A stretch of DNA of 64,000 nucleotides. It comes from Acanthaster planci (Eukaryota). Positions within the stretch are counted from its first letter, which is position 1; each line of letters starts with the position of its first letter. The notes under the pieces are model-generated. The model was not told where the DNA came from, made no database searches, and saw only the letters and a list, made by a program, of their open reading frames with translations. This document shows positions 251 through 59,368 of the stretch, piece after piece. Where the stretch lies: NCBI RefSeq assembly GCF_001949145.1, contig NW_019091360.1, forward strand, positions 1,671,599-1,735,598, read 5' to 3'. The translations under genes were made by a program, and so were the position numbers.

Positions 251-3200
251 GTAAGTAAAAAGAAAGGATCTTATACGAACCGAAGAGGTGCCGGAGATAC
301 TGGGGAAAAAAAGACCTAAATATGGAACTTCGTGAATAGCCAGCTGGAATTAAACTCCAAGCCCCTCCGGATTCACAAAGTGTCCAGAAAATCTGTCAAA
401 AATAAATGAGCGGTTGGCACTAGATAATGTGGTTGGTCTTCATACAAACTTGAAACATGGATTACATGTACATCTGAAAATATTTTGAGTGCCTTGGGGC
501 AAACTGATCATTGAACGAAGATTTGCCACATAAATTGTCTGATTTATTATTATGTTTATTAATAGAGCAGACAGCATCAGGTCAGAATGATGTGAATCGT
601 AAAAATTATGTTTGGGCTAAACTACAGGATTAGGTTTTAATACAGAAAGCAAATATTTCTGACGGTCCAACCGATTGAGAGATTTATTTAGGAAATGCCT
701 TTGATGTGCTGGCATATGTACCAGATGAATGTAGATTGGACTTGATTGAAGAAAAAGTCGGAAACTTTGCCGAAATTGAAGTTTGAATGCCTTGATCTGT
801 TCCCCTGAGATTCGACTCAGTGAGACTTTACAGCGTCTCAGCTGAACCATCGTTTGAAAGTTAGCCGTGCTCCTTGAGCAACTTGGATCCTGAGCCTCAC
901 AAGTGCGTTGTATGATATGCACTACCGACGGCATACAACTGTGTATTACATGTGTGCTCGAAAGTGTTTGCTGCATCCTTAATCGTCTCTGCTGTGCAGG
1001 TAATGTGCGGACCGCACATGGTTGTTCATGCCCATAGCTAAATCACAGTGTGGCATTATAGTTTACCGGTGGATCGCACTTGTGTACACAAAAGGTCTTT
1101 ATCACCCTTTGTCTTTCCTTTTTTCCTTGTTAGTGACTCGTAAAAACTGCAGCGGGACATGTGACTACCGTTGCCGGGGACCGACGCAGGCCGACTGCTG
1201 CCACCGTAGCTGTGCGGCTGGCTGCACTGGACCAAGTAACAGAGAATGCCTGGTAAGCATAAGAAAGCTAAATGTAAGCCTACATTTAGGTTGGTTCCCT
1301 AGTGGACATTTGGTTATGCTGTTTCCAATGTCATTATCATACATGTAGGCTAGGTAAATCTTAAACCAAAAGAGGTTTTATTTTTTTAATTTGAAGTGAT
1401 AAGTAGGACAGTTACGTATTAATCCACTTGTTTGGGGGTAAAACTATGTTTTTGTTTATAAATTTTGTTAATGGCGGGACCGAGATTTCACTTTTGCATG
1501 GAATGGCCCTCGGGTTTCCACATGGTTGTATCGATTGCTGTTAGCAGGTTAGATACCAAGATGCCTACTGTCATGGAAGAGATTGTGTATGACGTTATTC
1601 GATGATAAAAAAAGGTCAAAAATTGTGCGCTGAAATATTCCTGTGTTGTCACTGCAGCAAAAACTGATACTTCAGTGTGATGCATTTCATTTATGGTCAC
1701 TCTGTTGACAACTTGTGTTCCACTTTCTGAGTCGTAAAGAAAAGAAATGTGGCCCTCTCTGAAGACTCATTGTAGACTCATTGTAGTCAGTTGGCAGTCA
1801 AAATAAAGATCTATCTTTGCCATGAGTCTTTGCCATCTATCTTTTGCTCATATCTGAGTCCATGCTTGTGTCAGACGCGGTGGACAGTTTCTGTGTGATT
1901 GCATAACATCAGGGACTGTTCGGTGATACTGTCTGCATCTCTTTATGTTGATATGGAAAACTAGACTTCAAATTACGTGACCTTAGACTGTAGGCTTGGG
2001 GGTCTCTAAAAGCAGCCAAAGGTTAGAAAAAAGTGTCCTAATTGTTGCCCATTCAAAACCTGCCCGGACTGTGCTCATGCAACTTTGAGCATTTCAGTTT
2101 TGACAAAGCCAGGCATAATAGGAGCACATTCTCTTTTCTCAACTTTCAGGCCTGTCTCAAGTTCACCATGGACGACCAGTGCGTTGAGGCATGTCCGCCT
2201 CGCACCATATACAACCCGGATACGTTCCAGAACGAGCCCAACCCGGACTTCAGATATGCCTACGGGCCCAGGTGTCTCACCAAATGCCCCGGTAAGGAGG
2301 TTGTCTCTAGATCAGCTCCCTGATCTGGCAATTTCTTGGCCCTTCAGAATCTTTTTTACTTTGTGTGAGGTTGAGTGCTTTGTACACATTTTGAATTGTT
2401 CATTTTTTGTCCTAAAAATGGAGAATTGCTTGTTTTGTGTAGCGCTGAATTCAAAACCCCCCAAAACCAAACTAGTCAAGAAAAATTCACCTTAAGAGAA
2501 CTTTGGTTAAGGAGTTAGCCAAACAAACCTCCAATAATAAAAAAAAAAGAAACTGGATGTCATCCGACAATTCCTATTTCAAATTCCTCACAGTTTGGTC
2601 CATTGTTCATCTTCTTAACATTGTGCAGATAATGTCTTGGAGGAGGGCGACAACTGTATCAACGAGTGTCCCACGGGAACCGTTGAAAGCACAGTACCGG
2701 GAGAAAATAAATGCGTGGAATGTGATGGCCCCTGCCCCAAAGGTACGTCAGTGAATCATGCAGTCACTGGCTCTTGAAAGGTGCCTGTAGTTTAGGGATT
2801 TCAAGAGTACTAATTTGTCATTCATTTATCTCTGTGTCTGGAATTTTGGGGGGGGGCTTGGGCGTCTGAGAATTACAGATTTATCTTCTGATACGGGCTG
2901 TTGGTTTGGGAATTAGGCCAAATGGTAAGATTGGAATCACTAAATGCAGAAAATAGTGTGTGTATCTGTGTGTGTGAGGGCATGTAAAATTGGAAACAAG
3001 AGATGCCATCTTTGGAAAGTGGTGTGAGTTTCAGATAGCAGAATGAAACAGGCAGCATGTCTGCAAGTTGAGCTGCGTACTCAAAATTTTACTGGGAAAC
3101 TCTGGTGTTGGCGGTGGAGCAGATGCATTTCATCAGAATTTTTGTCCAAATTTCTACTCTGCACAGTGTGTGATGGTGTTGAAAGCACCCTCTACAGAGA

Positions 3201-6200
3201 AGACTTCATCAACGGGTCGTTGTCCAACTGCACCATCATCAAAAAGAACATCTTCATCGGCACATCCTCGTTTGAAGGGTAATTCTAGCATCTAAAAGAG
3301 CAATTAGTGTTAGTGTTGTGTTGGAGTCTGTCACAAGTCCTTGCCAGTCCCTGTAAGTCCGTCACAAGTCCCTGTAAGTCCATCACAAGTCCATTACAAG
3401 TCATTCAGCCTTGAGCCAATTCACAAGCTATTCAAATGAACCGTGAGAGAAGCATTCTTTTGTCATTGTTCACCCTATGACTTACGACTGGCCTTGTGAA
3501 GGGACTTGTGATTGACTTTGAAACTCGTCAAATTCTACATCAAAGTTTTGTGAGCATGTTCAGAACATTGCTCGTCGACAAGATGACGTAATAGTGGAAA
3601 TGGGTAGGACACAGGCAGTGCGGGTAAGGGTGGTGGGTGTTCATCCTTTTCTGGAAAAAAAAAAGGGGGGGGGGAAATGAAAACCAAAAAGGAAAGAAAC
3701 GAACCAGGAAGGAGGAAAGGGGAGGAAATGTGTCACTGTAAAAATACCTCAGAATAGACCTTATTCATTGGGAAGCCATTTTTCATCTTGTTCCCTAAAT
3801 CTGTAATGTTCCGTGTCATCTGTTAGATGGGATGGTGCCAGACTCTTTTGGGTTCCAAGCCTCACTTTCAGTTTTCTTTCAAATGTGGCTTAAAACAGAT
3901 ATTATTATCGCATCAACAATATTTGATGACTTTTTGTTGACCTTTTTTTTACCACGGTTAGTTTTTACTCGCGGGTTCACAAAATGGAAAGTTTTTACCT
4001 CACTTTCAATTCAAGATGGTGAATGCATGAATACAGTCTATAACACTCTTTTCATCATTGATTGTATGTCAGTTTGCTGCTGCTGAGTGCTTTGTATCCC
4101 TCCTACCCCCCCAAAAGCAATTTCCCTTCCCAGCGACGTCCATCCTTCAGGATTTAGGCGTTCCTGTTCCAAAACAGCATTGCCTAACCTTTACAGAGGA
4201 AAGCCACACAGCCTTATGTTGCGATCCTGGCAGAATCTTTCTCAACACAGTTTTCTTGAATGGAGAAAAATGGAACAACTTTTGACAAAGGCACCCAGAG
4301 GAGCTGAAATTTCCAGGAATTCATTCATCACTCACATGCAGAAAAAAAAAATTTCAGGCAACTCCGTGGCATCGATTTGTTTTGTAGATTACCGGAGCCA
4401 GCAACCAGTAGGAAGTGTTTTTTTTGTATTTTACATTTCCTCACAAAATGACATTGGGTGTGCCTTTTTTTGGCAGGGATCCATTTTCGGGGAAGCAAGG
4501 CATTTCTATGGAGTTGCTGGAGCGGCTGAGCACGGTCCAGGAGGTCAAGGGATTTGTGTCCATTCAGGGGCACCACGTCCACTTCACCAACCTCACCTTC
4601 CTGCGCAACCTGAAGAAGATCTACGGCCGCAAGTTGTATGGGTAAGGACACTCGCAGTGTGTGTGTGGGGGTGGGGCAAAGAGAAGGCACTGATTGGCTG
4701 TCCCTCACAGTGTCAAGTCACAGGTCAAACTCAGTTTCCATGCCAACAGACCTAGACAGCATCGATGACATGCGATCATGTGGCTGCTCTTGATAGCGAC
4801 TTGATGCAAACGGATGCAGAGTGTTGGTAAAGCTGGATCTTGTTCAACTTTGCCGACTGTCTGCGTCAAGTTGTCCAAGTACGGTGCAAACAAACAATCT
4901 AGCATAATAGGCATTCAAGGATGTTTGTCTTGCGAGAAAATGATTTGCTTTTGACTAAAATTATAAATGAAACTCATCAAATTAGAGTGTCTGTTTGGCC
5001 TCAAGAAATATTCAAACCAACTAAAAAGGCATATTATACAAAAATTTTCCAGATTTGTGGATGTCACTTTTTGTAACATGGTGTCACACTGTCACTGTCC
5101 TGTGTGTGTGTTTCGACCAATAAATGGAAGCCATGCTTCATTATATAATGAGTCCCATGTCTAGCAACAGGGAAAGAATGTAACTCACTTGGATAGCCCA
5201 TAATTTGACTCACAACCAGATGATCTTGTGATGAGATTTTGCGATCTGGTAAAGACTCTGTTGAGGTGCTGATATCGAGAAAGTGAACAGATTATGTTCA
5301 AAAAAATTTCCCAAACTTTGAAAAAACATTCCATATTGATTCCATTGCCAGAGCAGTTTTATTTATTCTTACTTCTGTTTAGTCCAGCACCAAGTGCCAA
5401 TTACAGGACGATTGTAAGTGACATTGAAGACTATGATGAAGAGATGTTCAGTTGAAAGAGATTCCAGGGAAACCCAGAAAATCAAATAAGGAACTGAGGA
5501 CCCACATGGCGACCTAGGTGGGATTTGAACCTAGGGTTGCAGAGGTGAAAGAGCTAGGAAAGCGCACATGTGATTGTTTTGTCGTCATTTCACCCTTTTT
5601 GTGGGGACCCCAAAAATTCCATAGCGATTTCTAGACAGAGCACACCGATTGGATAAAACAGAAATAGGTAATATAGGTATAGGTCATATGATATATAAGA
5701 CATACCAGGCCGTAACTGGCTCACACAGGTTAATGCTGAGGTTGAGTTGGGCGTATGGTCCTCACGAGTTCAGAAAAAGCCAACTTTTATACAGTGTTGA
5801 AGGGTTTTTAAAACTTTTTATACAACTTTTATACTCTTCTTCAATGTCTGAAAACGATTGACATCCTTTTGTGGTTGATTGTATTGAAAAGTGCACCGTT
5901 TTAAACATTTCAAGTTCTCTGTGCTTTTTTGGAAAATGCCGGGCACCATTGCTGTGTTGTCAATCAGGGAAGACACCGCTCAGTTCGTCTGTTCAAATTG
6001 CGAACCCAAAATTCGCTCACCAAAAGAATTTGTGACAAAGGGGATACTCGTTGGCTAATTTGCCATTGATTCAAAGACTCATTTGGCGCGGGATATGTGA
6101 CAATGGGGACCTCCCTCTATTGTGTCGTCTTTTGTGTTGACGGCATCTTTGGAATTCCTTTCAGACATCCGGGGGGGAGAGGTGCTGTAGGCACAATAGC

Positions 6201-9200
6201 CTAAAGCTTGTGCATCACATGGGGGGGTCTCCTTGGCTACATATCATGCTGGATATACAGACACTCAAGAAGCAGTGTATCACAAAGAGAAGTGGAAATT
6301 TCAAATGGCAACATATCATTTCCAGCATTTTGTTGTGTACACAAATCAATGTAACATGGAGGTTTGCTCAAGAATATTGAAAAATTCACATTAGCAGGAA
6401 AAACCGCAAAGGCATCAAAAGAACCCTTTATAGCAAACAAACATTGAAAAAAAAATTGAGGAAAATTGAAACTCCAAAGTGCATTCTTCAAGAACTTAAG
6501 GAAACAAATTGCATTGCCTGGACCCTTTACAAAGGGATGTCAGAAGTGGACATTGGAGGAAGGAAATGTGATGAGTGAGTTGAGAGACCCAGTGAAGCCA
6601 TGAATTTGAAATGAAAAGCAAGTGTTACCCTCGTTCATTACAGCAATATGTCTGATCATTTTGTACCCAACCCACCACCTCCACACTTTTCCAGCATCGA
6701 TGGACCAAAGCAGTACTCGCTGTTCATTAATAGCGACTCGCTTGAGTCGCTGGGGCTGACGTCGCTCCAGCGCATCAACAAGGGGAACATTCTCTTTTAC
6801 GAGAACCCCAAGTTGTGCTATGCCGCTGAGGGCATGTGGGACAGTATTATGAAACAGCCCGGTCGGCAAACGGTGGAGTTTTATCAAAATAAGGAGCAGC
6901 AAGAGTGCAGTAAGTACTTCTCTCCCCACCCACCCCTCTCTGGCATGGGTTCTGGCATGGCATCCATCCACTGGGACCTCTGTGGGATCGGAGAGTTCAG
7001 ATTCCTGCAGCATCTGGTGACCATTTCAATCTGAGCTGAAGTTTGGAACGGTTCACACGAAAGAGAGATTCAGTTCAAAATGACTTTTTGTCACAGTATG
7101 AATTGTTTGAGAAACTTTCTCTGCACCTTTCCCATTCCATATAACTGTGGCACTTCTGTGCTTATCCTGTGAGCAGGTAGACACAAATTTGAAAGTTTTC
7201 ACAGCTCAGTATGAGATGTTACCAGGATCTTGCAGCAGTGGCTCGACAGCAGAAGGTCCCAAGTGGAGTTTGTATTGAGAGTAAATTGCATGTTGAACAA
7301 TGTAGAATACTAACCCTCCTGTGTGTTTGTTTTCATGGCCGCATGAATGCGTTGTTGTTGATAGCAACCACGCCCTGTACGTCGCATCGTCCACTGTGCA
7401 GTCGCTCAGTCTTGTCAGTTTGCAAAGGATTGAGTCGGGCGACGTGAATATCAAGTTAAATCCGTGGTTGTGCTATGCAGACGAGGCAATGTTTGATGGG
7501 ATAGGTCACAGGGACATGGAGGTGACCATCTCTCAGAACGGGGAATCAGTCAATTGTGGTAAGTATGGAGAACCATCTTGCCCCACCCAGCTTCCCCCCT
7601 CCCCAGCCCTTCTTGGCTATCAGACATTCCCCCAGTCCAGCGCAGTCGTGATGCAGGAGAGATGCTTGTAATCAATCAAGTGAGGTTCACTAAATCCAGC
7701 CTCGAAGACATCTTTCAGATTTTTTTTTTTTTTGCTCCGTGAGTGTAAAACCTTGTGTAACTTTTTCAAAGAAGACTGAGGGATGCTTCCCCTCCCCCCA
7801 GGAAAATCTAACCAAAACGAATCCCACTAACGCACGCTGCTTGCTTTTGTGTCCAAAAGTTGGCCGAGTTGTTAAAAGATTTCAAACCACTTTTAAAAAA
7901 AAGGTGTTTTTCATTTGGTCAGTCCAGTCATTGCAGTACTTAAATTAGCTGGCTACAGGACTGAGCTTGTAATAATTATGGTTCACCTGATTGGTTGAAA
8001 GCAGACCCCCCTGCCCCTGCATCACATAACCTTAACCCTCCAAAACCATAACCTGCACGTTTGCATGTTTGATAAAAACTGACGCATGCACAACCCCGAA
8101 TGCACTTCATCACTCCATAACCAGGCTGACGATAGAGTTCCTGGAGGTGGATCCTATCGGACACTCTCCCACCTTTTTAACACATAACTCGAACCTTTTT
8201 CTGTGGAACATCTCCTGTAATTTCACCTGATTCCTGAAGCTTTATTACATTTTCGGAAACGAATTCCGGTATTTCAAAGTAGCAGTTTTTTTTTTTCCAA
8301 ATAACTTGCACCGCTGCAGACATGTCAGGGCTGCATCTAAATTTTCATGCCTAGAATCACTGTCTTGGGCTACGTGGGTCAAGTAGCATATCGCCCCCTC
8401 TTGTCTACAGCCACCCAAGGGCGGATCCAGGGGGGGGTGGCGGGGCAATTTTTTGGTCTATTTCATTTCCCTTCCTTCCAAATCATGTATAAGCACCAAG
8501 ATGTTGCCTCAATTCCTCAGAAAGGCCTTAAAAGTTTACGTAACAAATTTTCCAACAGTTTGGCCCCCAAGAAACAATTTCGACCTCCCCCCCAAAAATG
8601 TGGTTCTAGATCCGCACAGCCCAGCCCTTATTCTAGCAGTACATAGCTGATCCTCACTGTCTTTGGAATCTTCCCCCACAGACATCTCCTAGCTTCAGTT
8701 TTAGCTGTGTCTTAATCACGTCTTTTATTCTGACGCTAAACCTCAACTCGCTCACCCGGATAAAAAAAACTCAAGTGTGTCCCTGCTCACATTGTGCCGT
8801 GAATACAAACCTTCAATCGTAGCTCCTCCAAGTATGACCTGACGTGGGTCTCATGGTCCTCGAAGGGTTATCTCCTAACTCTGCCAGCCTGTCTATGCAG
8901 TGACGTTCACCGCCAGTAGGTGGTCTGCAATCCCCATGTGTCCAAAAGCCCGCTGTTTCGGAATCAAGGGGCCTACTTTTTGTATCCCAGTTTAGATTTG
9001 GCATTTCTTGTGATGGCAGACCACCTATCAGTTATGTGCCTGGTCAGGATTTGTTGTGTTGAAATAACTCAGCATTCCTGGATTTTGCATTTTTGTTCAA
9101 TGGGATTTATTTGCATTTGGCAACTTGGAATCTGCATGAGTTGGATTTTGTTATTTTTTTCTGCATGGTTTTGCATGCATTCTATTTTTCGCTAGATCTT

Positions 9201-12200
9201 GGTTTTAATGGTTTTGTTTGAAATAAAGAAAGCAAGATGGAACCATCTAAGAATGATTAAAAAACCTCTTTACAAACAAAAGAAAAACTGCTTAATTAAC
9301 CCCTTTATATCGGGAGCCATCCACAGCCGTGGCTGTGTGTGAGGATTAGTGCATACCACACATACAGTCTATTCACCATGCAGCTGCTGGTTCAATGGAG
9401 CCTGCTGCTGGACAGAGCTTTGCACACTGGGCATACCGCAGTCCAGCAGTCACGGTCAAAAGAATCCCGGCGTGAAGGGGTTGACTTCATCAAGTTTCAC
9501 AATTGTGAAAAAAACAAAAAAACAGATGATGCTACTCATTTCATTTCCATTTTTTGAATTGAAGAAAAAATAGGCTTTGTTTCCAAAACACTACACACAC
9601 ACAGACTTTTAATTCGTGAATAGGCAGTTCCCCTACATTGAAAAAAATAAAAGGACACTGATCATTAGATCATCAAATGTGAAGAAAATATGGTACACGT
9701 TGTCTCCTGTCTTCCATACTTGACATGTGCTTACTTTCCATTTGTGAAGTCCTATATTGAAGTCCTATCGTTCGTTCTTCTCATTAGTCCACAAATCACC
9801 TCCTGGCAATGGCGTAACTAGGGCTAAATGTGGGAGGGAGCCCCGGTGAGGAGGGGACACGGGCATCCATCCACTGAGGGGCACATGCCTCCAACATTGC
9901 CCTCCCACCTGGCCCTCAAAGTTTACACCACTGCCTCCTGACCGCTGTCAGTTGGGGAGTGGAACTATTTGTGTTGGAAATTTCATGAATAATTCATGAT
10001 TGCTAATTTGAATTTATTCAGCTGTGCTGCACAGCCACACCCACTTTTAGCATTACACTCTTTCACAAATGTGATTACATTCCTTCCCCCCTTCCATCCT
10101 TCAGATTTCCCACATTTTGGTTCATTGTGTGTCCACGTTGTCGGTTGTGACTGTCGTCATTGTGATTGTGAAATTAAAAGTCAAAATTTCTTCTTCTTTT
10201 TTTCCCCTGCTGCCCATTTGCCAGCTTGCTGTGTCTTAGCAATCCAAAACAACTTCTTGAGGCAATCGTGCATTTCAACCCTCAGTACAGTTCGACGTTT
10301 CACTGGACATACTCAATGAGAACAACTCAAAGACACACAAGTGCCAGTTCCATTCAAAAACAGACAATCCACACATACGAGGAACTCAGAACTGCCAAAG
10401 AATTCTCTGGCCCACAAATTGGTTTTCTCAATTGCAGGATAAGACTGTTAGGTTTGCATTTTGCCTGTCACAGCGTAGAGTAAATATGTAGAGATGAAAC
10501 GAATGCATGGGAATGAGCCTAATACTGGAATGCCTGCATCTTTGGTCATAATGATTTAATGAACCGGCATTTTGTCAGTACTTTGATAATATGGCCCAAT
10601 CCGACAAAAACTTGAAATTACCTGGAGTGCTTCTCGGCTTCGTCCAGTCACAATCAGCGAAAATTGCTCAGGTTTTCCACAAAAATGTTTTATCTTTGAC
10701 ATGTAAATAATAACACATTTTTAATGTGTGCCCAATAGTGCATTGTTCAATAAAGACTTGGTACAGCGCTTGTAAGATTGGGTCATATGTGGAGTATAGG
10801 ATCTGCTCTGGAGGCTTTGTTCCTACAAACTTGATTTGGAAACAAAAATTCGCAAAAATGACTTTGAAATATGCTGTATAAAGCAGAGCTCTTTCTTTAC
10901 CTGGGCCAATTTCATAGAGCTGCTTACGTACAAAATTTGCTTAAGTGCAAAAAAACCTTGCTCAAGAAAAAGGTTACCAACTCAAAATGCTAACCAAAAG
11001 ACAGATAAATACCATTCCAAAACAGTATACATCGCGTGAAGTTTTGGCTTGTAACCTGATTTGTCAAGTAAGGTTTTTTCACGCTTAAGCAAATTTTGTG
11101 CTTAAGCAGCTCTATGAAATTGGTTGTAGTCTGAGAAATGGGAACAAAGCAAAATTTGATATATCAAAATATAGTCTGTATAAACAAATCCTCCAATGCT
11201 TGACTAGGTAATTGTATTTGTTGGCTATAACATTTATCGTACCGTAACTCCTGACGCACCAACACCCCTTCCTCGGTAGTTATTAGCCCCACCCAGTGAT
11301 CGTCACTCCTCAGACTCAATGTGTGTTGGTTGGATAGGCCCACTTTTAAAAACTTTTGGCATTAGATTAGATTTCTACAGTAAATTGATCACAGTTGGAT
11401 GGACCTGAATTCAATTGATTCAATCTCTGTTGAATGTTATGCTGTAAAGATCAAGGAAAATCCGTTGTAGTTTTAAACTCAGATGAAGGAAAGAAACACA
11501 AAACTGGTTCTTTCCGTGGCTGGTTCTGTCACAGATGAAAACCCAAAAAGATTGGACATCTGTGAAAATGTTGAATTTGTCAAGGAAAGCCATTTATGCA
11601 TTGGTACATGTCACGGCTTACCACTGAATAAAATGTATGATATCTAATAGGGGAAAGAAACATTTGGAATTCCTCTTTTTTGGAAATCTGGAAATCCCTC
11701 TGGAACTGGCAACTGGAAATTGGATTTATAATTTTAAGTAGCAAAACATGTTTTCCATATTTAGAAAAATCGTACTTGTGCATTTCTGTGATTCCCAAGT
11801 AATTTGTTGTATAACTCAAGCTCTGTACTAAAAAAAAATGTGGTTTGAGAGAAACATTCTGTGGCATTTCTGCTGAATCATAAACTATCCTTGGGCCGAG
11901 CCATCAGAATTTTCCAAATGTTCATCTAAACGACAGTAATTCTCTCCGAATGTTGTGCCGTGCCCACATGCTTGTGTGCTCAACGTTTTGAAGGCTGCAA
12001 CCTTGGGGCATTTCCAGACGAGTCTCCCCTTATAACACCGACCCATTAAACACCCTGTGTGTAGTCATAAAATCCCTCCTCATGCGTGAAACGAACTCCA
12101 TGTGTGTTTGCAGTCACCTTCGTATGAAGGAAGGGAGGGGGCTCTTTTTGATTAGAAATGAGAGCAGTGCAAATTTATCCCTGGCTTCCAGAGTGCACGT

Positions 12201-24200: not shown

Positions 24201-27200
24201 TGCATGCTTACTGATAAAGTACAGGTCTCAGAGTGAAATTGGTCAAAGCGAGGCAAATGGCTCCACTTAAAACAAACAGAAAGACGTTCTAAGAGAACCA
24301 AAGAGTGCTTAGCGAGTGGAGCCTCCCATTGATGTGGGGGGTGAGAAATTTTTTCGGTTTAGAAAAATTACGTTATTTGGGGGGAATTCAAATGTGTGAA
24401 GACCCCCAAATTTAGCCACGCCCCTCAGAAAGGCCGTGGAATGTTACAGCTAGAAATTTGTAAATTCCACCTCCCCCCCCAAATAAATTAAAAACTTAAG
24501 CCCCCACCTCTGTAAATCTGGTTCTTAATCAAATCTTGGGAACTACTCGTTTATAATTTGAATTCCTGCAGTAAAGACAAAAGTTTGATCTGTTCCTATT
24601 TTTTTGGTGGGCCTAGTTGGAGTGCATGCCGGATGGTGCACAGTGTGGCAACAATTCCTTCTACTACCATGTTGGAGAGTCTAGCAACTTGCCGCTCCGT
24701 GGCTATTCGGTGAGTATGGATTGACGGAGCACCTGCTGAGCAGGGTAAAATGCCATAGAATGCTCACGGAGCAGCCATCTTGCATTTCTGCCATTCAAAG
24801 CAGTGTAAACCAACCTGAGGCTGGAAGACAGTCTGTCCCCTTTTATCAATATGGGAAGTTGTATTACTATTGCCGATGGGGTCGACAGGGATCAAGACAA
24901 ACGTGATAACAGCATCATTACAGGTGTCTTGCATTGAGAGTACTCGAGAAAGATTCATGTAGGAATTCTGCAACGCTGAGCCCTCGATCACCAATTTTTT
25001 TGGGGGGGGGGTCAGAGGCCAAAGAAGATTGTGGTCTCCCTGTGTTGAGAGAAAAGGCACTTTGTTGGTTATCAGTCAAGACATCACAAGATCTGTCACT
25101 AAACCAGCCACAAGACCATTGATAAGACTAGTCACTGGCAGCAGTGTGAACAGTGACAGAAGAATGATTTTGTTGCCGTTCATTTGAAATTACTTGCGAC
25201 TTGTTTTCAGACTTGAGGCCTTGCACAGTCTTGAAATGGCCTTGGGAGGTCTTGACTGCCACACCGTGGTTGCTTGATCCATGTTTTATCTGCATAGTCT
25301 GTAACACATTCAGAGGCTGCATTTGTGCATGGAAATCTTGGCGTACGCTATTCATTCACTGCCCAGAGACAAGTGAACACTGTGTATCGCCCAGAACTGA
25401 TATTTTGTTTTCCTCTTCCCTCGGACTTAAAAAGCTCTGTCAGATGTGCGATCACAACTGCCTGGGTTGCCATGGGGCAGGCCCCTCCAGCTGTAAGCAA
25501 TGCAAGCGATACAGACGGGAGCAGGAGTGTGCAGACGAGTGCTTTGCCCACCAGTTCCCCGACCAAAATGACACCTGTCAGAACTGCCACCGCGAGTGCC
25601 GCGGCTGCTCCGGCGGGAGCTCCCCCTATGACTGCATCCGCTGTCAGAACTTGGAAGTGCTTGAAAGCCAGAATGTGGTAAGTGCTGCCTCTCACTGTGT
25701 GCGTACTGCTGTAACATTGATCAATCATACTTGATTGCGAATCATAATTACCTTGTTAGGAAAATGTCAAATCAGTTTCAATTTTGACTGTATATCATTA
25801 ATTATCCTTTATGAACATAAGAAAAACCACAAACTAGAATGATACTTGCAGATCTGTGTTAGAGACAGCCTGAACTTTTGACCCAAGTAAATCTTTTTAA
25901 AAAGGCTCAATAGCAACTAGTCACCAAGACTTTTGCTGTCATCAACAGACCTACTGTGCCAAGGAGTGTCCACCTGACTACCCCTACAACGATCGCAACT
26001 CCCACTGTGTGGCCAACTGCTCGGAGAATGAGTTTGCCAACAAGAACGACGTCTGCATGGCCTGCCACCAGCAGTGCCTGGGCGGCTGCTTCAATGACCG
26101 CCGCAGCTCCTGTTTCCAGTGCCGCAATGTCAAGCACGGCCGGGAGTGCCTGGAGAAGTGCCCGGAGGGCTTCCTGAACAGCAGCGGAGTATGCATGAAA
26201 GACCCCTCCCTGGAGAGTACTCGGAATCCCCAGAAGTGAGTGGTGCATGCGACATTTTAGTTTCGAAGATTTCCTCCTTTTTCGCTAGGTCCGATTCCTT
26301 CCGTCATTCAAACTGTCGTTAATGACTTGCGTTTTCCTGGAATAATTTACAGTGAGCCAGTTCAGCATTTGAAAACAAAGCGCCACATGTCATGCCAGCT
26401 AGGACATAAGTCTGTAAGTCGGCGTGAAATCACCCTGATACAGTGTTGTAGTGGAGTATTTTTTAAGTACAAAGGTTCTCTGCCAAATATTGAACTGGGT
26501 AAGAGGGAATAAAGCTGAAGTACATTGATGGTAAATACACAAAGATAGGATTACAAATTAAACGTTAGACTTCGGATACTACAGGAGAAAAGCACTCAGA
26601 AAATACTTGGCTGAGTACTTTCTGAGTCTTTCGTCCCAAAAATTTAATTTTTATTAAACAGTGATAGTCTGAAGTTATCATTTCACTTTGTAATCTTACC
26701 TTTGTGCATGTACACTGTGCCATCAAATGCCCATGTACTCCGGCTTTTTTCCCTCCTAACTAGTTAAACACAATAAAAAAAAATCACAAGATTACTCTGG
26801 TGGGACTCGAACCCATGACCTCCTGCTTACTAGTGCAGACGTTTTAACCACTCGACCACCGAGCTTGCCGGGGTCAGCTGGACAGTCGGAGTCAGGTGAA
26901 GCAGCTGGTACCGCAAACTATTTTCAAGATGTATTTTTGCGTAGGGGAGATGTCAATTTGTATAAGCAGGAGATCGTGGGTTCGAGTCCCACTCGAGTAA
27001 TCTTGGGAATTTTTTCGCAAGCTCTTGGACAAGCACTGAGCATACAGTGATCTCCCCAATGCAAAAATACATCTTGAAAATAGTTAAACACTTGGCAGAG
27101 AACTTGGTACTCAAAAAGTACTGACCATGGCATGCAAATGTTGAGGTTGACTGACCTACCTACAATGTGCCCGACTTTGAGCATCTCAATGCTGAATTGG

Positions 27201-55902: not shown

Positions 55903-57189
55903 GTGAGTTGTTATCAAGTCATTTTCTTCGTTTCAAGAATGTTTCATGTCACTTCATACATGTACATGTAGATGCAAGGATCCATTTGGATGTTGGTTAA
56001 TTTTCAAAAGCACCACCAAAAAAGCCGCAGCAGCAATTCCAAAAACAAAAAGACGTAAAATTTGTCAGTTTCTGTTGTCAGTTTCTACCATTTTCAAATC
56101 TTCGCGCTGCAGATATTGGCTGCTTTTAACATAACCCACCAAAATTTGGCAGTAGAAAAACACAAAGCGCTCTATGAATTGTCAATTAATTTGGGTCTTT
56201 TTATTCACCGGCGCTGCAAACATGTACATGTGTGATTTGTGGTTGTCAAATCTCAGGTTGTTTGGGTCAATTCAAAGTCAAGTTTCACATCATAGCAAAG
56301 TCAAGAGTCAAGCTTTATGTTGGTGTGTTTTTACTTCAAGTGTGTAAACAGGCAATGTTGAACAATACACTTAGCTGTACAGTTCAGAGCGTACTGAATT
56401 TCCTCTGGCCATTGGATTTTTATTGATGAGGTCCTACTTAAGAAGTCCAAAGTATTGCATTCACATTTTCCTTTCTAAACTCATGGCCCTTGAATCCTGC
56501 TTTGAGTATCACTACGTCTTTTTAATTTAACTACCAGTAAGACAAAGAGTAAGACAACTGATCCATGCAATACGTTGTCATAAACTGTAATTAAAAGATT
56601 TTGAAGAGCCCTAATACTTGTACTTGTAAGTCAATTTCATTTAACTGTATTCCTTTCATTTTGGAAATCTTCCATTCTGGCGATCAGTTAGCACTCTCTC
56701 ATTCCCAAAGGTCCATCTTGCCTCATCCTTCAGAACCTGCAGTCGGACTAAAAAAATACAAAATTTTAAGTCAGCAGAAAATATTTTTGTGTGATAATTC
56801 AACTCTTGTTGTTTGACGTTCCTTAAAGATACTTCTGGCCTCTTAATTGTTTCAAGATTTATGATGACACAATGTTAAATGAAAGTCAGGACCTCAACAA
56901 AATTCAATGCAACATGAAACACTTGAAATAAGAACACACCAACATAAGGCTTGATTTTTAACTTTGTTATGGTATGAAGCGTGACTTGGAAAAGACGAAA
57001 AGAACTGATATTTGACCTCCACAGTGACATGAAACGTTCTCGAGACTCGAAGTAAATGACAAGATAATAACTCTTCCCCTTTTTGTCTTCCTTAATTCAT
57101 TGTTCCTCCTTTTGCAAGTACCACCAGTGCAACATTGATGCTCCACCAACTTGTGCTGTGTTCCCAATGGTCACTGTTGCACTGTTGGG

Positions 57190-57970
57190 GATGTGCGCGG
57201 CGGGGGAAGGGATGTGCGCGGCGGGAAGGGGCGCGCGGCTGGGGAGGGACGCGCGCAGCGGGTAGGGTCGCGTGCAACGGGGGAGGGACGCGTGGCGGGT
57301 AGGGGCGTGCGCGGTGGGGCACGCAGCGGGGTGNNNNNNNNNNNNNNNNNNNNNNNNNNNNNNNNNNNNNNNNNNNNNNNNNNNNNNNNNNNNNNNNNNN
57401 NNNNNNNNNNNNNNNNNNNNNNNNNNNNNNNCACGCGCGGCAGGGGGAGGGATGCGCAGCGGGTAGGGACGCGCAGCGGGGGTGGGACGCACGCAGTGGG
57501 GGTGGGACACATGCAGCGGGGGTGGGACACGCGCGGCAGGGGAAGGGACGCGCAGCGGGTAGGGACGCACGCGGTGCGGGAAGGGGTGCGTGCAGTGGGG
57601 GAGGGATCATTTGTTTTCTAAAAAAATAAACTGATACAGAAATAAATCAGTAACAAAAAAAGTTTTTTCTTTTGTATATATCCAGACCCACCCCCACACA
57701 GCGCGACCCCTCCCCATGCGGTGCGACCCCTCCCAACGCGGCACAACCTTCCCCACGCGGCGCGACCCCTCCCCACGCGGCGCGACCCCTCCCCACGCGG
57801 CGCGACCCCTCCCCACGCGGCGCGACCCCCCCCCACGCGGCGCGACCCCTCCCCACGCCGCGCGCGGCGCGACCCACCCCCACGCGGCGCGACCCCTCCC
57901 CACGCCGCGCGACCCACCCCCACGCGGCGCGACACGCCCCCTGCCGCGCGTGTCCCACCCCTGCCGCGCA
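57190..57970. repeat. GC-rich ~20-bp minisatellite (CCCCACGCGGCGCGACCCCT) in two opposed arrays around an AT-rich spacer; includes N gap 57334-57431
   Basis: Direct inspection; explains the Arg/Gly/Pro-rich spurious ORFs. Confidence 0.9.
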
Positions 57971-59368
57971 CATCCCCAACAGTGACCATTGGGAACACAA
58001 CACAAGTTGGGGGAGCATCATTGTTGCACTGGTGGTGCTTGCTACAGGAGGAACAATGAATTAAGGAAGACAAAAAGGGGAAGAGTTATTATCTTGTCAT
58101 TTACTTCGAGTCTCGAGAACGTTTCATGTCACTGTGGAGGTCAAATATCAGTTCTTTTTGTCTTTTCCAAATCACGCTTCATACCATAACAAAGTTAAAA
58201 GTCAAGCCTTATGTTGGTGTGTTTTAATTCAAGTGTTTACAGTAAACAGCTAATGCCAAACTTCAAGAAATCCAATTATCTATGTTTCCTTTTCCTCTTA
58301 TCACTGGATTTTGTTGAAGCCCTAATTTTGTGCAACATTGAATGTCCAAATCCTTTAAAAAATTGGATGTAAATTTAAGCAATGCACATGTAATTACAGT
58401 TATAACTTATTGCACTGATCAGCTGTCATAAACATTTTTCTTTTAAAACGTTGGTGATACAAGGAACACGATTTGAGGGACATGACTTAATCACTGATGT
58501 CTTGGTTGACTTTTGACAAAGTAAAACATTGAATGTTGAGCCCTAAAAATTGTGTGGGATGATTTCCCAGGGGATTTTCAAGAGTTTCAAAGTTCTTCAA
58601 AAATTCATAACTTCAATTCACTAGACGCTTACACCCACACGAATGACTGTCTGGTGGCTACTCTAATCTGACAGGCAACCTCCATTAACGTCAAAGTTTT
58701 TCAGCCAGGCCTGCTGCCTAGTAAAAAGAGCCCAGATTGCGCGGTGTTGCATAATTTCCTTTGTTCCCAATATTGGCATACAAACCCAAGGTGCCCAGTT
58801 CCAGAAAGCCCGGAGGCAAGTGGTTAAATAGGACCTCATCAACAAAATCCAATGACCAGAGGAAATTCCGTCCCCTCTGAACTTTACAGGTCAGTGTATT
58901 CCTTGAAGTTCAACATTACCTGTTTACTCTAAACACTTGAAGTAAAGACACACCAACATAAAGCTTGGCTTGTGACTTTGCTACGACTTTGACTTGAACT
59001 GACCAAAAAAACCCTGAGATTCGACAACCGTAAATCACACATGTACATGTTTGCAGCGCTAGAGAATAAAATGACCCAAATAAATTGACAATTCATAGAG
59101 CGCTTTGTGTTTTTCTACTGCCAAATTTTGGTGGGTTATGTTAAAAGCAGCCAATGTCTGCAATGCAAAGATTTGAAAATGGTAGAAACTGACAACAGAA
59201 ACTGACAAATTTCCCTCTTTTTCTTATAGGAATTGCTGCTGCGGCTTATTTGGTGGTGCTTTTGAAAATTAACCAACATCCAAATGGATCCTTGCATCTA
59301 CATGTACATGTATGAAGTGACATGAAACATTCTTGAAACAAGAAGAAAACGACTTGATAACAACTCAC

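Follow-up and report, generated by a model that had tools for sequence, protein, structure and literature searches.

The EGFR gene of the sea star Acanthaster planci contains two adjacent paralogous exons, termed here A and B, that encode alternative versions of the C-terminal half of ligand-binding domain III and are spliced on an either/or basis. We regard it as nearly certain that this arrangement is real, expressed and deeply conserved. The window is the whole 64,000-nucleotide stretch of DNA that was analysed (contig NW_019091360.1, positions 1,671,599 to 1,735,598 of the forward strand), and all coordinates are window positions.

The gene was assigned to EGFR by exon mapping, Pfam domains and comparison of a domain III model with ErbB structures. 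Exon A matched the EGFR-like protein of A. planci at 100%, and RefSeq isoform X4, which has Cys-rich repeats, a transmembrane segment and a kinase, spanned 184-36796 exon by exon at ~100% identity. An L/Cys-rich ectodomain, a transmembrane segment and a tyrosine kinase are encoded by this one gene, which places it among the EGFR/ErbB receptor tyrosine kinases. The N-terminal 196 residues are encoded upstream of the window start. Two alternative first exons with signal peptides lie before position 184 and are similar in Acanthaster and Asterias amurensis, and the A. amurensis X4 isoform has a third type of N-terminus. Extra Cys-rich repeats past vertebrate domain IV are encoded at 18790-26236, in agreement with a table in the accessible part of PMC4914847 that gives sea urchin EGFR four Cys-rich domains. 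Both N runs of the window fall outside the gene, and a G+C-rich tandem repeat at 57139-58061, 3′ of the gene, flanks a 98-base N gap. Two 82-nt inverted-repeat elements are present in the 9.9-kb intron (10906-11123 and 16700-16879), the first of which attracts many transcriptome reads from other loci and resembles a small transposon; inverted repeats near exons A and B were unremarkable.

Table 1. Exons and candidate splicing motifs around the swapped segment of Acanthaster planci EGFR.
Feature	Position	Strand	Description
Upstream constitutive exon	4477..4641	+	165 nt; N-terminal half of domain III; ends in phase 2
A-long 5′ extension	6644..6694	+	51 nt, in frame, adds 17 proline-rich residues; AG acceptor at 6642-6643
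Exon A	6695..6909	+	215 nt, 71 full codons; CAG acceptor, GTAAGT donor; C-terminal half of domain III
Two GCATG	6943..6959	+	putative Rbfox-type sites, within 50 nt after the A donor
TGCATG (7287), branch-point-like CTAAC (7310), GCATG (7341)	7287..7345	+	before the B acceptor; roles putative
Exon B	7365..7558	+	194 nt, 64 full codons; TAG acceptor, GTAAGT donor; same half-domain as A
Downstream constitutive exon	17468..17601	+	134 nt; opens Cys-rich domain IV; starts in phase 1

The positions, lengths, phases, GTAAGT donors and 455-nt spacing of exons A and B (Table 1), first given in a sequence-only reading of this DNA, were confirmed from the sequence. The length of each exon is 2 mod 3. 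Their peptides are identical at 26/64 positions, the value which that reading had estimated by eye, and the BLOSUM62 global score was 113.5, whereas 2000 shuffles reached 33 at most. A third copy of the exon was not found in the window by tblastn (next best E 0.048). Between the flanking exons, A alone or B alone leaves the reading frame open; A and B together give a stop within B (codon index 153/235), and skipping of both gives a stop ~7 codons into the downstream exon (index 61/99), so the proposal that inclusion of both or neither breaks the frame holds in each case. Because of this disruption, A+B and skip transcripts are predicted to be non-productive. The pair thus has the makeup of mutually exclusive exons, being adjacent and paralogous with equal phases and open frames. 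The two versions originally described are both real, but a third, A-long, had been overlooked, which arises from a second in-frame acceptor for exon A at 6644, 51 nt upstream. Among the four RefSeq isoforms, X3 (XP_022103993.1) contains A, X4 (XP_022104002.1) contains B, and X1 and X2 contain A-long; the A/B isoforms are therefore already present in RefSeq as automatic, unlabelled predicted models. Since annotation pipelines discard frameshifted models, the missing both and neither isoforms are no independent evidence of exclusive splicing.

Exon use was examined in raw RNA reads from four runs (X12, X15, X16 and X19) of three studies, 18-24% of each run being aligned to 2900-19100 at a required identity of 92%. 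The joints listed were the best 15 of 48, mostly repeat-derived, and 3277>4476, which enters the upstream exon, and 4640>7364 are given as output, their cut positions being offset by +1. The joint from A to the downstream exon (6909>17468) was represented by 15 reads in 3/4 runs (0, 1, 2 and 12 in X12, X15, X16 and X19), that from B to the downstream exon (7558>17468) by 27 reads in 4/4 runs (5, 8, 2 and 12), and that from the upstream exon to B (4641>7365) by 12 reads in 3/4 runs (0, 3, 1 and 8), while two constitutive control joints had 32 and 28 reads (3, 1, 7, 21 and 6, 5, 4, 13). Reads leaving A bypass B, and reads entering B bypass A, so inclusion of either exon goes with omission of the other; the junction check proposed in the sequence-only reading thus found both exons in either/or use. 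Joints from the upstream exon to A (6644 or 6695), from A to B and for double skipping were outside the best 15 of 48, the weakest of which had 11 reads, so the other joints probably lie below that number, and the upstream>A reads are probably divided over two acceptors. The position of the upstream>A joint outside those 15 is what might be expected if one exon were a pseudo-exon or an assembly artefact; but both exons are joined to a common downstream exon in raw reads, both are open and both have Asterias orthologues, which makes that explanation extremely improbable. The B-type paralogue described below was rejected as the source of the junction reads, its protein identity of ~77% (628/817) being set against the 92% read threshold, and it was further ruled out by the listed X19 differences, which do not yield paralogue residues.

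Study P7, with two runs, gave an A:B ratio of 14:14, and the remaining two runs together gave 1:13; under this grouping, which was picked post hoc, Fisher p was 0.007 for reads and 0.02 for distinct starts. This contrast is variation between runs and not proof of tissue control, lineage being confounded with it. In X19, almost every read departs from the window sequence at ten listed exon positions, within 3174-3250 and 4488-4546; X19 may therefore be another lineage, one species label covering divergent lineages. The divergent run still carries both A and B joints.

For Asterias, 15/16 members of the protein cluster were listed, comprising 12 named full-length isoforms and 3 unnamed fragments. 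A-short accounts for 2 of the named isoforms, A-long for 7 and B for 3, and each of the two species, A. rubens and A. amurensis, has every type. When Acanthaster was compared with Asterias, A was identical at 41/71 positions, B at 28/64 and 25/64, the flanks at 34/55 and 27/44, and the A-long extension at 9/17; between A. rubens and A. amurensis, A was identical at 71/71 positions and B at 59/64. On the Acanthaster-Asterias figures (28/64 for B vs 41/71, 34/55 and 27/44), B has evolved more rapidly than either A or the flanking exons. The only Patiria model is A-short, 60/71 identical to Acanthaster A. A 512-base ENA contig encodes an A-type exon, also 60/71 identical to that of the window, with the 17-residue extension almost unchanged and the usual Asn-Pro motif substituted; its origin is a related lineage or else a paralogue. 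Scanning of JGI metagenome contigs with exon A produced 213 pattern matches, none of which was confirmed as a relative.

A search was also run with the B-type paralogue, and its ten best matches were looked up for isoforms. Annotated isoforms of two further echinoderms exchange this segment: of 3 isoforms in the sea urchin S. purpuratus, 1 has one version and 2 have the other, and of 4 isoforms in the crinoid Anneissia japonica, 3 have one version and 1 has the other; as both species are represented here by proteins alone, tandem exons are presumed in them. All five isoform pairs share the start position of the swap, and in the stars and the urchin the first downstream residue varies with the version, as expected from a phase-1 junction. 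With two Asterias species, a sea urchin and a crinoid, the swap spans three echinoderm classes, a breadth that the sequence-only reading had missed. Overall, the pair is annotated in 5/6 echinoderm species examined that have a kinase-bearing receptor, the exception being Patiria with its one model. No swap was seen in the hemichordate Ptychodera flava (one version in 13/13 isoforms), and one version was found in amphioxus (3 rows, near-identical) and butterflies (13/15 rows located); the segment was not located in Tubulanus or in two short butterfly fragments. The Branchiostoma floridae protein XP_035661662.1 has two near-identical tandem copies of domain III, reflecting a recent duplication or an assembly artefact.

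A tree was built from 19 exon peptides and 70 columns, with Holothuria (2 rows, one divergent version) excluded. Star A exons clustered across orders (support 91/97), and star B exons grouped with the second urchin version (83/73) on a long branch. A duplication restricted to the Acanthaster/Patiria lineage was rejected (p-AU 0.032, one of nine groupings, uncorrected). On these peptide comparisons the exon pair was present before the two sea-star orders diverged and, most simply, before the echinoderm classes did, events that we take to lie >200 million years and ~480 million years back, respectively. A single duplication before the divergence of crinoids, sea stars and urchins is the likely history. 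Several independent origins in sea stars, urchins and crinoids, at an exon prone to duplication, are rather less to be expected and on balance unlikely: separate duplications in stars, urchin or crinoid are compatible with the tree (p-AU 0.21-0.25), whose deep branches are unresolved over 70 columns, and the FGFR IgIII region is described as a hotspot of recurrent splicing evolution in the available text of PMC5703972, but the free tree unites the second urchin version with star B, the 5-residue lead-in of star A is found in one urchin version, the hemichordate has a single version, and one origin needs fewer events.

Exon A aligns gap-free to human EGFR 411-448, and the region of the swapped exon corresponds to human EGFR 411-473. 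Alignment, residue range and structure match agree with the original placement of the segment in the C-terminal half of domain III (L2), and it presumably equals human EGFR exon 12. The site-3 pocket for EGF Leu47 (L47) is formed by L382, F412, A415, V417 and I438 according to the accessible part of PMC11400634. By homology to human EGFR, four of these five residues are encoded in the swapped exon, namely F412 and I438, to which the sequence-only reading had pointed, and also A415 and V417, whereas site 2 (D355, F357) and L382 lie upstream of it in human numbering. Encoding of ligand-contact residues by a swapped exon, the FGFR-type arrangement, is thus found here by homology. The A-short lead-in and the A-long extension fall immediately before position 411, beside the H409 contact. 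Positions 412/415/417/438 are Y/F/N/L in A of Acanthaster, Patiria and Asterias (4/4 kept among star A exons), and in B they are H/Y/A/N in Acanthaster and H/Q/T/N in Asterias (2/4 kept). The versions differ at 4/4 pocket positions in all four species pairs, urchin and crinoid included, although alignment of the second urchin version at 412-417 is unreliable and, given overall divergence, 4/4 differences are expected by chance with a probability of 0.12-0.40 per species. The Acanthaster B-type domain III model had a mean pLDDT of 95.7 and a TM of ~0.9 to ErbB4-NRG1, Drosophila EGFR-Spitz and human EGFR, and the Asterias A-long model had a mean pLDDT of 91.7 with low confidence (62-66) only in the insert. 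Both versions are predicted to fold as a normal domain III, model scores reflecting fold competence only in a family well represented among solved structures.

From these data, splicing would place exactly one of A (short or long) or B into the EGFR message, and A+B and skip transcripts would be cleared by nonsense-mediated decay. The site-3 pocket would change from mostly hydrophobic in A (Y/F/N/L) to more polar in B (H/Y/A/N), with the kinase, ligand site 2 and domains I and II the same in every version, and A-long would put a flexible 17-residue loop beside that pocket. Because the swapped exon forms most of one ligand-binding pocket, the receptors likely differ in ligand binding. That A and B receptors differ in EGF-family ligand choice or affinity, in the manner of the FGFR IIIb/IIIc switch, is suggested by the homology and is, in our estimate, somewhat probable. 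A switch between ligand classes is weakened by the sea urchin, for which the accessible part of PMC4914847 describes one EGFR and a single, NRG-type ligand.

The swap could instead alter receptor behaviour, with A as the main receptor and B as a low-affinity or ligand-insensitive dimer partner or dampener, or with a difference in release or trafficking. The single ligand reported for the urchin (PMC4914847, in the portion available) would suit such a role, as would the faster evolution of B, its polar residues (H, N) at the hydrophobic F412 and I438 positions, found in Asterias too, and the existence of the paralogue XP_022103500.1, which lacks kinase and membrane anchor and has a B-type exon (46/64 identical). 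Yet reads for B>downstream exceeded those for A>downstream in 2/4 runs and equalled them in the other 2, so B is not a minor form, and a polar residue at 438 occurs in single-version receptors as well (N in amphioxus, H in a cod ErbB4-like receptor), so polarity is no proof of lost binding. We consider this alternative rather unlikely. Near-equivalence of A and B, which would be intact as both are expressed and must fold while their differences represent drift, is judged less likely again; pocket differences no larger than overall divergence predicts, the like folding of both models and the presence of only A in the single Patiria model accord with it. Redundant duplicate exons are expected to vanish in some lineages over such time, however, and the pair is annotated in 5/6 echinoderm species; moreover, A and B appear to be under different constraints between the Asterias species (71/71 vs 59/64), and A-long is conserved as well. 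A difference in ligand binding is accordingly ranked first as the best reading, ahead of B as a dampener and then of functional equivalence.

The paralogue XP_022103500.1 has 854 residues and ends just before the transmembrane segment, without a kinase. It uses the X2-type first exon, and its scaffold is equal in length to that of the EGFR gene. A secreted decoy is one possible reading of this protein, and an incomplete gene model is another. A wider scheme, which we regard as unlikely, would be that one signalling EGFR gene with an Rbfox-controlled three-way switch at site 3 has, throughout echinoderm history, provided the tissue-specific EGF-type and neuregulin-type receptors that vertebrates have by gene duplication, the secreted B-type paralogue of Acanthaster acting as an isoform-matched decoy.

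The B acceptor is pyrimidine-poor and has two GCATG ≤80 nt upstream. The 455-nt A-B intron contains 4 GCATG against 0.65 expected in shuffles (p 0.0036), a number reached in 0.14% of 7233 gene windows, and GCATG ranks 2/1024 among five-mers; the complete TGCATG is present as a single copy, without enrichment (p 0.29). Two upstream GCATG were also found at one constitutive exon (19 others checked). Three further TGCATG lie within 45 bases at 9133-9177, 1.6 kb 3′ of exon B and beside a high-copy repeat. Rbfox activates exons from the downstream intron. Repression of an exon through the intron that precedes it is described for Rbfox proteins of C. elegans (PMC3585155, accessible part). In the starfish, Rbfox bound to the four GCATG between the exons would favour A and repress B. 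Control of the choice by Rbfox is a possibility that we hold only tentatively. The early stops of the A+B and skip forms fit the combination of frameshift and nonsense-mediated decay that the same part of PMC3585155 gives as a known safeguard for mutually exclusive exons. Steric exclusion was rejected in view of the 455-nt intron and the branch-point-like site ~400 nt from the A donor. Docking/selector pairing of the Dscam type was not detected in a weak, single-species scan, in which the best duplexes of 11 region pairs (-24 to -33 kcal/mol) were within the background of 40 pairs (mean -28.0, best -33.9 kcal/mol).

The literature yielded no account of EGFR domain III being encoded by duplicated or mutually exclusive exons, most subscription papers being outside the search. 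The sequence-only reading, which knew of no earlier description in EGFR, therefore stands as regards papers and not as regards databases, where the RefSeq isoforms exist. Splicing and isoforms go unmentioned in the accessible text of PMC4914847 on sea urchin EGFR. EGFR/ErbB is absent from the text available of PMC5703972, and its 6 supplementary files gave 0 matches to 'egfr', the 4 displayed of 6 'erbb' matches being vertebrate genes, with urchin genes possibly given by identifier only. The accessible portions of PMC13187141 and PMC12828087 contain nothing on an EGFR domain III exon swap. Echinoderm EGFR isoforms are database predictions, and their recognition as a conserved duplicated-exon switch was not found in print.

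The site-3 swap provides natural receptor pairs that are identical but for one ligand-contact surface, so the role of domain III in affinity and ligand class is directly testable. EGFR/ErbB ligand selectivity is usually held to diversify via gene duplication, and splice-based ligand switching is a textbook property of FGFR. For studies of echinoderm development and regeneration, the swap adds a level of EGFR control that had gone unrecognised and that can be approached in tractable models (Patiria, sea urchin), and expression or knock-down work at the level of the EGFR gene lumps different receptors together.

Splicing also diversifies ErbB receptors elsewhere, as in sEGFR, EGFRvIII, ErbB4 JM-a/JM-b and CYT-1/2. 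These variants truncate, delete or alter juxtamembrane or cytoplasmic parts, whereas the starfish gene swaps a ligand-binding piece, and the variant list in the available part of PMC5343918 includes no swap of a duplicated domain III piece. The C. elegans exons egl-15 5A/5B and unc-32 7a/7b are likewise used either/or, under UGCAUG/Rbfox control (PMC3585155, in its accessible part); they belong to other genes, and the Rbfox link in the starfish is putative, drawn from motif enrichment with one full TGCATG. The closest likeness is to IIIb/IIIc of vertebrate FGFR1-3, where tandem paralogous mutually exclusive exons again encode the C-terminal half of a ligand-binding domain in a receptor tyrosine kinase, and where exon choice affects ligand affinity (PMC5703972, PMC5343918, in the parts available). 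FGFR is another receptor family with an Ig fold, whereas EGFR has an L-domain beta-helix; starfish EGFR differs further in its third variant, made by an alternative acceptor, and in that its effect on ligand binding is a prediction. The starfish EGFR switch is thus an analogue of FGFR IIIb/IIIc and not a member of that system by descent.
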